Assembly: GCA_043757265.1 (NCBI GenBank)
Contig: JAYUQP010000022.1
Coordinates: 8,683 to 72,682, forward strand
Direction of reading: 5' to 3'
DNA: 64,000 bases
DNA from: Bdellovibrionales bacterium
GTDB taxonomy: Bacteria > Bdellovibrionota > Bdellovibrionia > Bdellovibrionales > JAGQZY01
Shown: piece by piece, positions 43,584-47,624 of the stretch
Position numbering within the stretch: position 1 is the first letter of the stretch
Layout of the letters: every line of letters starts with the position of its first letter
Position numbers and translations under genes: made by a program
Notes under the pieces: generated by a model
The model's database searches: none
Seen by the model: only the letters and a program-made list of their open reading frames with translations
Told to the model about the DNA's origin: nothing

Positions 43584-46500
43584 ATGAAAGTTCAAAAAAT
43601 ACGCTTTGCAGCCTGTTCGCAATTTCTTTTCTTATTTTTGTTTGCCCAATCATTTGCCGATATCAATGAATCGTCGGCGCTAAAAACCTACAAAGAACGG
43701 CTGCGAGTGATAGAAAACAGCCTTAATCCTGCCGAAATGTACGAGGCGACGAAAGATCTTGTACCAACCAACGAATCTTTCGAAATCCTAAAACAGACCC
43801 TGGCACATCTTCCCGACCGACACAATAACGGCGACTTCGAGAAAGCTTTCAATCCAGAAAATACGATTATGATTCTTCTGGAGGCTTTTGAAAAACATGC
43901 CTCTTCCGTAGACATCGAACTCCTTGCCGATCTCAATCGATGGGCAGATCTTTCCCACCTCGAAGAAGTTGTGCAGCAAAAGATAATTCAAACTGCTATT
44001 TACCTCAAAAATATAAGCTCGGCACGCAAGCTTGTTTCGATGAATACCCTATACCCCTCAAGCGGAATACGCCCTTCCCCGACCACACTTCGCCTTGCAG
44101 GACCAAGTCCACAAAAAATCAGTGATGCACACCAATCCGCATTGATTGAAATTGAGCGCTTTTACCGGAGCATGAAAGATCGCGTTGTTGGACAAGATGA
44201 TATTCTTAAATCCTTCCGCTCCCTTTACATCAGTGACCTTATTAGCGGAGGTCGCCGTATTGAGCCAGAAGTTTTTTATCTGATGGGTCTTCCTGGGAAT
44301 GGCAAAGACACCATCGCCGAGGCCTATATTGATGCTCTTTGGAATATGCGAGACGCTCACGTTTCGCATATGTATCGCATCAACATTCGCACTAAAGAAG
44401 AAGCGTGGAGTTTATTTGGTTCTAGCAAGGGATACGTCGGCTCAGCTGACCTCCCCAGTTTCTTAAAGTTCTTGGTTGAGCACTCGGGCGGTAAATACAT
44501 ATTGGGCAGCGAGGCGACACCTCAAGGGACCCGAACTATTGTCGAAAAAAATACGACATGGAAGGCTGACGAATTCACTTTAAGAGCCCCGTCCCATAAG
44601 GCTGTTATTTTTGTAAACGAAGCTCACAATATCCCTCGTGCAGTAAAGGACAATATTCTCAAACAAGCCATCGAACGTGGTATTTTTCCAATCACCAATC
44701 CAGGCTCCACTCCCAACGCTGTTTCGCAAATTCAACTGCCCGTAACTTTTATCTTCGCATCCAACGAGGGAATTGATCTGCTCGAACCGCGCGAAAAAAA
44801 CGGAGCGCGCCTTGGTAAACCTTTATCCTTTGATCGTTTGCTTGAAAATTATGAACGCGTCTTTAAAGATAAAGAACGCCTGAAACAAGCAATCATGAAG
44901 GGCAATGGCGAGCTCAATAATCCAAATCATCCGGATCAACCAGGAACCTCAGAAGAGTTTCTCAATCGTTTCCCTGACCATCGCGTTCACCTGTTACGTC
45001 CACTCAGCCCAGAAAACCTCCAGCGGATCGCTGAAATATTAATTAAAGCTGAAAGTAACAAACTTAAAAATGCGAGCGGACGCCTTGGACAATACACCGT
45101 CACATTGTCAGAGGAAGCCATTCGCTTTATCACTCAATATGATTCTATTCCTTCTGAAAACTCTCGTCCGATCAAGGCTCGACTGAAAAGTTTTGTCTTT
45201 GATGAAATTTTTCAGGCCATTGAAAGCAAAGAAATTAAACCATCTTCGCTTGTCCAAGATATTTACGTCGACATTCAACTCAATCCGGATGGCTCACGCT
45301 CCGCTCATTTTAAAATCACTGATTCAAATCCAACCTCTTATGAGTTTTGGAGCGTTATCGATCAAACCCTCAAAGATGTTCCCCAGGAACCCTTGTCACG
45401 AGACCGCATAGAGGCAATTTTAAAAATGCGTCAACAAATTCTCGATAATGTGTTCGGTGTTGAACACATCGTCGATAAGCTAATTGAGGCCGCGATTGTT
45501 TCCGAAAGCGAATCACGCAATGCCGGTGAGTCAAAAAGGCCTGCCACGGTGATGGCTTTTTTAGGTAAAACTTCCACTGGAAAAACAGAGACCGCAAAAC
45601 AGTACGTAAAAGCTCGCTATGGAACTCACGAACGGCTTGAAACAATCGACTTCAATGGGATCCGCGATCTCCAAGCGATGAACGCAAGAATTCTTGGCAC
45701 CTTTGATGCGCGAAATAATCCTATCGCCTCAGATTTCATGAAGGCCTACGACCGTGCTCCCGATGGAAATATTGCATTTATCTTTGATGAGGCCGCAAAT
45801 TCACCAAGGGAGTTGTTAAAAGGTCTGTATGAGATTTTGCGAGAACCGGTTGTTTCTGGTTTTTCTGACGGAAAGCCACGTCCCATGAAAAATGTAACTA
45901 TTATTTTGACGGGCAATGCCGGTGAACAAATCTACAACTTGATTCCAAAAGATCTTCCAACCGATGTTTACGAACGCGCCATGCGCGAGGTCTTTCGAAT
46001 TTTCCTGAATAACGCCGACCTCCAGCAACGAATTTTAGCAGAGACTTTCCCAGACGCGTTCATTGCGCGTCTGGGAAATAATGTTTATCATTTCGGCCCC
46101 TTGAAAGACTCAGGCAAGCGGCAAGTGGCGCAGTTGAAACTCCTCAAGGGACTTGAAGGACTAAAGCCTAAAAACAGTGAGCGTGGCTGGAATATGGTCT
46201 TTGCTAAAGAGTCCGATATTTTAGACCTCTTCGACCTTATCGAAAAAGAAGGGTTTAACAGTGCCCACCAGGGCGCCTCGATCGACTCCTTTGTTCGGCT
46301 TTCCATCATTGATAAAATCAAAGCCAAACTGCTGAGTGAAAATGTCGCTAATGGACAAGATGTCATGATTGAAGTTGCGAAAGAATCTATCGTACGGTCC
46401 GACCGCGACGTTTCAAATTCCTTTAGACACATGAAAATTATCACCGAAGCTGGTCAAGAATTTATCGTCGAAATCCCAATTTCGAAAAGAACGACTTCGA

Positions 46501-47624
46501 TGGCGGTTAGCGACGTGGATCGAATTTTAACGGCCTATCACGAAGTGGGCCATGAGATTGTTTCAGAAGTTTATTTTGGTGATCGCGTACGCCCGAAATA
46601 TATTTCGATCATCGAAGGCGTGACTCTTATTGGAGCTTCCTTTGTCCACTACGCAGGAATCCGCGTCGGGCAACCCCTTTCCGCCGGTCCGCGCACAAAA
46701 CAGGTTGTTCTTCGCGAAGCTGCTGTTTTGTATGGTGGCTATGTGGCCCAGCAGCTGGTTACGATAGGAGGTCGTCATGACTCTGGGAAAAAGAATGATT
46801 TCCATCGTGCCACACGACTTATTCAAAATGCCATTCTTCGCGATGGACTCTCGGACGAGTGGGGGAAAAGGTCCATTCCAGACAACGTAAAAACTGGCGA
46901 CTACATTGATCAAGAACTTTCTCCCGAGGAAAAAGCCAAACTCAATCACATCACAGATCGTTGGATGAGCTACGCTGAGCAATTTGCACGCGAAGCTTTA
47001 TATGTGAACATGGATCGACTTTTTGTGGTTCTCGGCAAGCGTCTTTCGGAAAAAGGTTTCCTAGATCAAAAAGCAATTTCTGAAATTCACGATCGATTTT
47101 CTCCGGTCACTGAAAGAACAGTAGACTTTGCCGGCAAATTAGATGAAGTGCGCAAAGTCATCGCACTTATTGAGCAGAGCGGGGCTAACGTAGGATCGGT
47201 TCTTGAAAACAAATTCCGCACAAGAGCCTACAGCGTTGATAACGCCCACGAGGCCTTTAACCTAGTAATGAAAGCGTCGAGGAAAGCAGGTTTATTTGAA
47301 AAAGTCCGTACGTACTTTTTTCCTCCCTGGGATAAATTGACGGAGCTTCAAAAAACTGTTGCGGCCTCTTACCTTGGAAACAAAATATCTGATTTGAGTC
47401 GTGATGCACGCATCGCCGGCGAATACTGGATGCCAGAATCTGTTGCCAACATTGATGAAATCATCAAAGAAGAGCGCCTTCGCGAAACTCGTCCCGTCAC
47501 TGATTTAGCTCGCTTTGAAATCTTAAAACAAGATTTAATGGTTTCGGAAGAGACCATCGAAGACATTCAAAGATCAGTCACCCAAAAATCAACAGCGGCG
47601 CTTTCTTGTAAAAACATTTTCTGA
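43584..47624 (+). CDS. fusion protein: export-type N-terminus, two Clp/Hsp100 D2-type AAA+ modules and a C-terminal FtsH-type M41 zinc peptidase
   Basis: 1346 aa. Module 1 has 'GLPGNGKD' and 'IFVNEAH' (degenerate Walker A/B). Module 2 has 'GKTSTGKT' and 'FIFDEA' (canonical). The C-terminus 'TAYHEVGHEIV...ISIIEGVTLIG...LYGGYVAQQLV...KKNDFHRATRLIQNAI' parallels FtsH M41. Confidence 0.8.
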   Translation: MKVQKIRFAACSQFLFLFLFAQSFADINESSALKTYKERLRVIENSLNPAEMYEATKDLVPTNESFEILKQTLAHLPDRHNNGDFEKAFNPENTIMILLEAFEKHASSVDIELLADLNRWADLSHLEEVVQQKIIQTAIYLKNISSARKLVSMNTLYPSSGIRPSPTTLRLAGPSPQKISDAHQSALIEIERFYRSMKDRVVGQDDILKSFRSLYISDLISGGRRIEPEVFYLMGLPGNGKDTIAEAYIDALWNMRDAHVSHMYRINIRTKEEAWSLFGSSKGYVGSADLPSFLKFLVEHSGGKYILGSEATPQGTRTIVEKNTTWKADEFTLRAPSHKAVIFVNEAHNIPRAVKDNILKQAIERGIFPITNPGSTPNAVSQIQLPVTFIFASNEGIDLLEPREKNGARLGKPLSFDRLLENYERVFKDKERLKQAIMKGNGELNNPNHPDQPGTSEEFLNRFPDHRVHLLRPLSPENLQRIAEILIKAESNKLKNASGRLGQYTVTLSEEAIRFITQYDSIPSENSRPIKARLKSFVFDEIFQAIESKEIKPSSLVQDIYVDIQLNPDGSRSAHFKITDSNPTSYEFWSVIDQTLKDVPQEPLSRDRIEAILKMRQQILDNVFGVEHIVDKLIEAAIVSESESRNAGESKRPATVMAFLGKTSTGKTETAKQYVKARYGTHERLETIDFNGIRDLQAMNARILGTFDARNNPIASDFMKAYDRAPDGNIAFIFDEAANSPRELLKGLYEILREPVVSGFSDGKPRPMKNVTIILTGNAGEQIYNLIPKDLPTDVYERAMREVFRIFLNNADLQQRILAETFPDAFIARLGNNVYHFGPLKDSGKRQVAQLKLLKGLEGLKPKNSERGWNMVFAKESDILDLFDLIEKEGFNSAHQGASIDSFVRLSIIDKIKAKLLSENVANGQDVMIEVAKESIVRSDRDVSNSFRHMKIITEAGQEFIVEIPISKRTTSMAVSDVDRILTAYHEVGHEIVSEVYFGDRVRPKYISIIEGVTLIGASFVHYAGIRVGQPLSAGPRTKQVVLREAAVLYGGYVAQQLVTIGGRHDSGKKNDFHRATRLIQNAILRDGLSDEWGKRSIPDNVKTGDYIDQELSPEEKAKLNHITDRWMSYAEQFAREALYVNMDRLFVVLGKRLSEKGFLDQKAISEIHDRFSPVTERTVDFAGKLDEVRKVIALIEQSGANVGSVLENKFRTRAYSVDNAHEAFNLVMKASRKAGLFEKVRTYFFPPWDKLTELQKTVAASYLGNKISDLSRDARIAGEYWMPESVANIDEIIKEERLRETRPVTDLARFEILKQDLMVSEETIEDIQRSVTQKSTAALSCKNIF

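Follow-up and report, generated by a model that had tools for sequence, protein, structure and literature searches.

P0001, a gene in a 64,000-nucleotide stretch of DNA (the window) from a Bdellovibrionales bacterium (GenBank assembly GCA_043757265.1, contig JAYUQP010000022.1, positions 8,683 to 72,682 of the forward strand), encodes a single chain in which two AAA+ modules of the Clp/Hsp100 D2 type (HCLR clade) are joined to an FtsH-type M41 metalloprotease. From the N-terminus, the order is a predicted Sec-type signal peptide, a helical N-domain, the two AAA+ modules, the M41 protease, and a helical C-domain. The protein is not a member of the FtsH, ClpB, or Lon families. Its open reading frame (ORF) lies at window positions 43584-47624 (+), begins with ATG, and was translated into 1346 amino acids (aa) with 0 internal stops.

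Domain architecture of P0001

The domain content of P0001 was determined by profile and structure searches. In Pfam, Peptidase_M41 (PF01434) matched residues 974-1168 with an E-value of 6.9e-14, which is over the gathering score, and residues 474-785 gave matches to AAA_2, AAA_22, ClpB_D2-small, and Torsin that were all under it. A preliminary description of the locus had expected AAA_2, ClpB_D2-small, and Peptidase_M41; of these, the M41 match was obtained over the gathering score, but the AAA_2 and ClpB_D2-small matches were not. In NCBIfam, the ClpB model TIGR03346 covered residues 598-936 (E 5e-18) and FtsH_fam covered residues 966-1163 only (E 1.7e-11). The scores over the whole protein fell well short of every equivalog cutoff, at 64.7 bits, versus a cutoff of 1232 bits for TIGR03346, and 43.6 bits, versus a cutoff of 600 bits for TIGR01241. 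No equivalog in the NCBIfam scan spanned the whole of P0001, and the best matches were to single domains. These domain-level matches bear out the earlier view that the architecture lies outside the characterised families. Assignment to an ordinary FtsH subfamily was rejected because these scores lay well under the thresholds for FtsH and ClpB, the AAA+ modules are of the Clp-D2 type, and a second transmembrane (TM) segment is absent.

Searches of the PDB with phmmer divided the chain in a similar manner. Residues 180-600 matched Hsp104/ClpB D2 with D2-small, residues 590-970 matched ClpB D2 (547-866), and residues 960-1346 matched the FtsH protease domain. No match to an S16 protease was found in P0001, the C-terminal protease being M41. 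A coiled-coil M-domain was not identified in the protein, and both AAA+ modules scored as D2-type.

The AlphaFold model of residues 26-1200, built from a 53-sequence alignment, had a predicted local distance difference test (pLDDT) score of 87 and a predicted template modelling (pTM) score of 0.63. Approximately 530 of its residues were aligned with the paired AAA+ tiers of ClpC1, ClpB, ClpA, and Hsp104 (Foldseek; VIA Z ~25). Each module alone resembled one D2-type AAA+, with the closest matches being the nucleotide-binding domain (NBD) of Skd3 (VIA Z 26) and the C-terminal D2 of ClpB (VIA Z 24). The model of residues 960-1346 (pLDDT 89, pTM 0.86) contained an M41 domain similar to the protease domains of FtsH, YME1, and AFG3L2 (Foldseek; VIA Z 17.9-19.4), and its C-terminal ~170 residues were predicted with confidence as an all-helical fold.

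The two terminal domains gave few matches. As regards a possible Clp_N domain, nothing was found in Pfam at E<=10 for residues 26-200, a region that is helical in the AlphaFold model, and an ESM Atlas search with residues 26-195 returned no usable matches. No Pfam match was obtained for the C-terminal helical domain (aa 1179-1346); the best match in the structure search had a Z of 4.6, a value that proves neither novelty nor the absence of relatives.

Conserved motifs and distribution of the family

Conservation of the motifs was assessed in a 61-sequence family alignment (A1), to which the counts in Table 1 refer. The Walker A (GLPGNGKDT) and Walker B (VIFVNEAHN in the context of P0001) motifs of module 1 are both degenerate, as had been reported. 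Because D242 and N345 are shared throughout almost the entire alignment, the defect is ancient and maintained and does not reflect local decay. Module 1 retains sensor-1 and sensor-2-like motifs, and the KGYVG of its pore loop aligns with GYVGY of ClpB D2. Module 2 is canonical (FLGKTSTGKTE and IAFIFDEAAN), and its pore loop is devoid of Tyr. The C-terminal M41 protease has the HEVGHE sequence and the downstream Asp of (K)ND. The readings of module 2 and of the protease in the preliminary description were thus upheld.

Nearly every family member ends in C-x-x-h-[FL], the Cys of which was invariant in 59/59 aligned homologs. P0001 contains Cys11, within the signal peptide, and Cys1342 only, and the mature chain has no other Cys. 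This motif may serve in disulfide formation or as a signal for processing or sorting. The preliminary description mentioned neither the motif nor the separate C-terminal helical domain.

Table 1. Positions of P0001 and its domains and motifs in the window, with conservation where it was counted
Feature	Residues (aa)	Window positions	Strand	Remarks
Whole ORF P0001	1-1346	43584..47624	+	1346 aa; stop codon 47622-47624; identical in independent contig
Sec-type signal peptide (predicted)	1-25	43584..43658	+	K/R n-region, hydrophobic h-region, AQSFA/D cleavage site, read from the sequence
Helical N-terminal domain	26-190	43659..44153	+	Helical in AlphaFold model; no Pfam family
AAA+ module 1	~190-560	44151..45263	+	Clp D2-like with D2-small subdomain; pseudo-ATPase tier; Skd3 NBD Z 26
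Module 1 Walker A, GLPGNGKDT	235-243	44286..44312	+	Asp (D242) at S/T position, 61/61
Module 1 pore loop, SLFGSSKGYVGS	276-290	44409..44453	+	Tyr retained: Y 54/61, F 7/61
Module 1 Walker B, AVIFVNE	341-347	44604..44624	+	Asn (N345) replaces Asp, 60/61
AAA+ module 2	~598-960	45377..46463	+	Clp D2-type, canonical ATPase; ClpB D2 4fcv Z 24
Module 2 Walker A, FLGKTSTGKT	659-668	45558..45587	+	K 61/61, T/S 61/61
Module 2 Walker B, IAFIFDEAAN	730-739	45771..45800	+	D 59/61, E 61/61
M41 zinc metalloprotease domain	974-1178	46503..47117	+	PF01434 E 6.9e-14; FtsH protease fold Z 17.9-19.4
HExxH zinc-binding motif, HEVGH	986-990	46539..46553	+	Invariant
Third zinc ligand, Asp1072 in GKKND	1072	46797..46799	+	Invariant, 60/60; position equivalent to FtsH GASND
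C-terminal helical domain	1179-1346	47118..47621	+	AlphaFold pLDDT mostly >85
C-terminal motif, CKNIF	1342-1346	47607..47621	+	C-x-x-h-F/L: Cys at -5, hydrophobics at -2/-1

The homology search yielded approximately 60 proteins of 1250-1400 aa with identical domain order and 30-87% identity to P0001. The 87%-identical ortholog originated from an independent metagenome-assembled genome (MAG) labelled Bdellovibrionales bacterium GFS_9251. Full-length members were present in 32 of the 401 sampled Bdellovibrionota genomes (~8%), in the order of the window genome itself and, beyond it, in several families from other orders. Within this sampling, which consisted of Bdellovibrionota genomes, the family seems to be confined to predatory Bdellovibrionota. 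Together with the Bdellovibrionales ortholog, this distribution agrees with the predator-like genome assumed in the preliminary description.

The integrity of the ORF was also supported. The window genome comprises 2.98 Mb in 133 contigs, is 96% complete, and was obtained from a sediment metagenome. Logan contigs from an independent run spanned the whole ORF with 0 differences. The sequencing-run search found DNA contigs of one sediment-metagenome study only, and no RNA runs were listed. When shorter or split relatives of the AAA+ region were searched for, just fragments on short contigs were detected and no standalone forms. An assembly chimera of two genes was rejected, its probability being negligible in view of the ~60 full-length homologs, the 87%-identical MAG ortholog, and the intact independent contig; the earlier reading of one uninterrupted ORF therefore stands. 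Since ~60 independent homologs share the architecture, P0001 represents a genuine lineage-restricted family and no assembly fusion.

Besides the fusion gene, genomes bearing the family encode an ordinary FtsH of ~660 aa and a ClpB of ~860 aa, each in a gene of its own. In the window genome (G000), contigs C129 and C40 carry the genes for a conventional FtsH of ~660 aa and for a protein of ~840 aa that resembles ClpB. The fusion family is thus an addition to these proteins, not a replacement.

Predicted export and proposed mechanism

In the N-terminus of P0001, MKVQKIRFAACSQFLFLFLFAQSFA followed by D, positive charges in the n-region precede a hydrophobic h-region and a cleavage site of the AxA type. 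The h-region is the single hydrophobic segment of the protein, with no further TM segment. In the homolog alignment, a signal-like N-terminus with an AxA-type site was observed in nearly all members and another hydrophobic segment in none; the few homologs without a signal-like start have the appearance of truncated gene calls. From its sequence, the leader looks like a Sec signal peptide cleaved by signal peptidase I (Sec/SPI), and P0001 is predicted to be exported via Sec. This agrees with the preliminary description, which had recognised an export-type leader and not the two-TM anchor of FtsH.

The domain content is FtsH-like and cytoplasmic AAA+ proteases are the norm, and P0001 could accordingly be imagined as a protease whose catalytic domains reside in the predator cytoplasm, the N-terminal helix being either a single N-out TM anchor or a helix that does not enter the membrane. 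We consider this quite improbable, because the K/R residues before the h-region favour an N-in/C-out orientation by the positive-inside rule, which would place the catalytic domains outside, and because the AxA sites are conserved and an FtsH-like second TM segment is absent.

If the leader were instead retained as an uncleaved signal anchor, the protein would sit on the predator inner membrane with its AAA+ and M41 domains in the predator periplasm and would act in quality control of the predator's own envelope. Such an envelope protease would have power only during intraperiplasmic growth, from leaking prey ATP. The single N-terminal hydrophobic segment is compatible with this arrangement, and FtsH and YME1 provide examples of membrane-anchored AAA+/M41 proteins. 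It nevertheless appears unlikely, since the AxA-type sites located directly after the h-region in most homologs favour cleavage of the leader, and the predator periplasm is normally ATP-poor.

Conservation of the catalytic residues suggests selection on two activities, namely the hydrolysis of ATP by module 2 and Zn-dependent proteolysis. A working compartment that contains ATP is therefore probable, and the conserved ATPase and protease sites fit poorly with residence in an ATP-free periplasm. During intraperiplasmic growth, Bdellovibrio reportedly takes up ATP and nucleoside monophosphates (NMPs) from its prey, as Ruby and McCabe are said to have described in 1986, in a study cited by PMC13689555. 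For an intraperiplasmic predator, the bdelloplast, i.e., the interior of the invaded prey, would be the likeliest site holding ATP, where prey ATP may fuel the breakdown of prey proteins. We accordingly favour, with about as much doubt as belief, P0001 as an exported, single-chain unfoldase-protease that depends on ATP and breaks down proteins in places where ATP from the prey can be used.

As to oligomer, activity, localisation, and ATP source, we infer the following sequence of events. After export by Sec, P0001 would form a hexamer, if FtsH, Lon, and ClpAP are taken as models. The helical N-domain would probably recognise the substrate. Tier 1 (module 1) may serve as a substrate-gripping or assembly ring, comparable with NSF D2 and Pex1/Pex6 D1; since its Walker A and B motifs are broken and its Tyr pore loop is kept, it likely grips the substrate by binding without hydrolysing ATP. 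Tier 2 (module 2) would be the ATPase motor driving substrate movement and, as in the analogous machines, would thread the unfolded substrate through the pore of each AAA+ tier and into the chamber of the M41 protease.

The similarity of the Clp-D2-type modules to the disaggregases ClpB and Skd3 also allows a role without proteolysis or without ATP, such as a disaggregase, a holding device, or an enzyme that cuts unfolded substrates without ATP in a compartment poor in it. This is very improbable in our judgement, as the catalytic residues of module 2 and M41 show no or almost no variation among ~60 homologs, which indicates selection for both hydrolysis and proteolysis.

A more specific form of the exported unfoldase-protease would be a predator weapon, in which the protease is exported into the prey cell (bdelloplast) and unfolds and degrades prey proteins with prey ATP. 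We regard this form as possible but doubtful. Envelope anchoring or delivery into prey, as put forward in the preliminary description, is speculative. Several observations weigh against the exported, prey-ATP-dependent protease in general: the N-terminal segment, as read from the sequence, might be an uncleaved anchor; no conserved gene neighbours were found in related genomes; and the taxonomy rests on one MAG label and on the kinship of relatives in the genome search.

Relation to known systems and genomic context

P0001 shares with FtsH, the m-AAA proteases, and the i-AAA protease YME1 an AAA+ unfoldase and M41 in one chain, with HExxH and the Asp ligand, and the M41 fold is shared with FtsH and YME1 at the Z scores given above. 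It differs from FtsH in that its AAA+ part consists of two Clp-D2/HCLR-type modules, one of them degenerate, whereas that of FtsH belongs to the classic clade; in that it has a signal peptide, whereas FtsH has two TMs flanking a periplasmic domain; and in its additional helical N-domain and helical C-domain with the Cys motif. YME1, which works in the mitochondrial intermembrane space, is an M41 protease that faces a topologically 'outside' compartment holding ATP.

Among the Clp proteins, ClpB/Hsp104 and ClpA/ClpC resemble P0001 in having two stacked tiers (D1/D2), and the P0001 modules are D2-like with D2-small and carry a tier-1 Tyr pore loop. Unlike in ClpB, ClpA, and ClpC, both tiers of P0001 are D2-type and tier 1 is ATPase-dead by motif; unlike ClpA and ClpC, which work with a separate ClpP, P0001 has its protease (M41) fused in cis. 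An export signal further distinguishes it from the Clp family, and the Pfam search at E<=10 detected no Clp_N domain in it. Like Lon, P0001 joins an HCLR-clade AAA+ motor to its own protease domain in a single chain and is likely to be self-compartmentalising, but it has M41 rather than S16, two AAA+ tiers, an export signal, and no Lon N-domain.

Skd3 (human CLPB), the best single-module structure match of module 1, is a Clp-D2-type AAA+ of the mitochondrial intermembrane space, which lies outside the matrix and is a compartment that receives ATP. In contrast to P0001, it is a disaggregase with a single AAA+ module and ankyrin repeats, and it lacks a protease. Pex1/Pex6 and NSF likewise have one tier with degenerate Walker motifs, likely used for assembly or substrate gripping, and another that hydrolyses ATP, but they are classic-clade AAA proteins, cytosolic, and not proteases. 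Thus, the parts of P0001 have precedents in Skd3, YME1, NSF, and Pex1/Pex6, and there is no characterised family that combines them all. The literature search found no paper on the P0001 architecture or on an FtsH/ClpB-type secreted protease in Bdellovibrio, and a comparative genomics study of Bdellovibrionota (PMC11656739) contains no reference to FtsH, ClpA/B, or M41.

The surroundings of P0001 were as previously described. A 317-bp AT-rich gap separates it from the upstream gene P0002 (42628-43266, +), which encodes a 212-aa protein bearing a signal peptide and without a Pfam family; no counterpart of P0002 was seen on the upstream side of the 87%-identical ortholog. The convergent downstream gene P0003 (47762-49003, -) encodes an astacin-family (M12A) metalloprotease (PF01400, E 7e-32) with an N-terminal hydrophobic leader, likely another exported protease. 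An astacin gene next to family members was not conserved in relatives. As the neighbours are not conserved, the gene context gives no functional hint. Within the P0001 coding region, antisense ORFs were present at 44058-44369 (-), 46088-46444 (-), and 46563-46982 (-), and these three are almost certainly spurious. The antisense ORF 46088-46432 has a 73%-identical counterpart in ortholog loci, which in all likelihood merely results from conservation of the sense strand.

In summary, the new elements of P0001 are the fusion in cis of Clp-D2-type tiers with an FtsH-type M41 protease and the retention of one ATPase-dead tier over long evolution, and an export signal is unusual for such a machine. 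In this family, a AAA+ clade and a protease module are paired in nature in a new way, which bears on the evolution of compartmentalising proteases. If the leader does direct export and P0001 is active, it would be an ATP-dependent machine outside the cytoplasm of its producer, perhaps powered by prey ATP, and the long-standing question of prey protein digestion by periplasmic predators would become open to direct tests. If its action is indeed directed at prey, it would be a rare ATP-dependent protease acting outside its producing cell.

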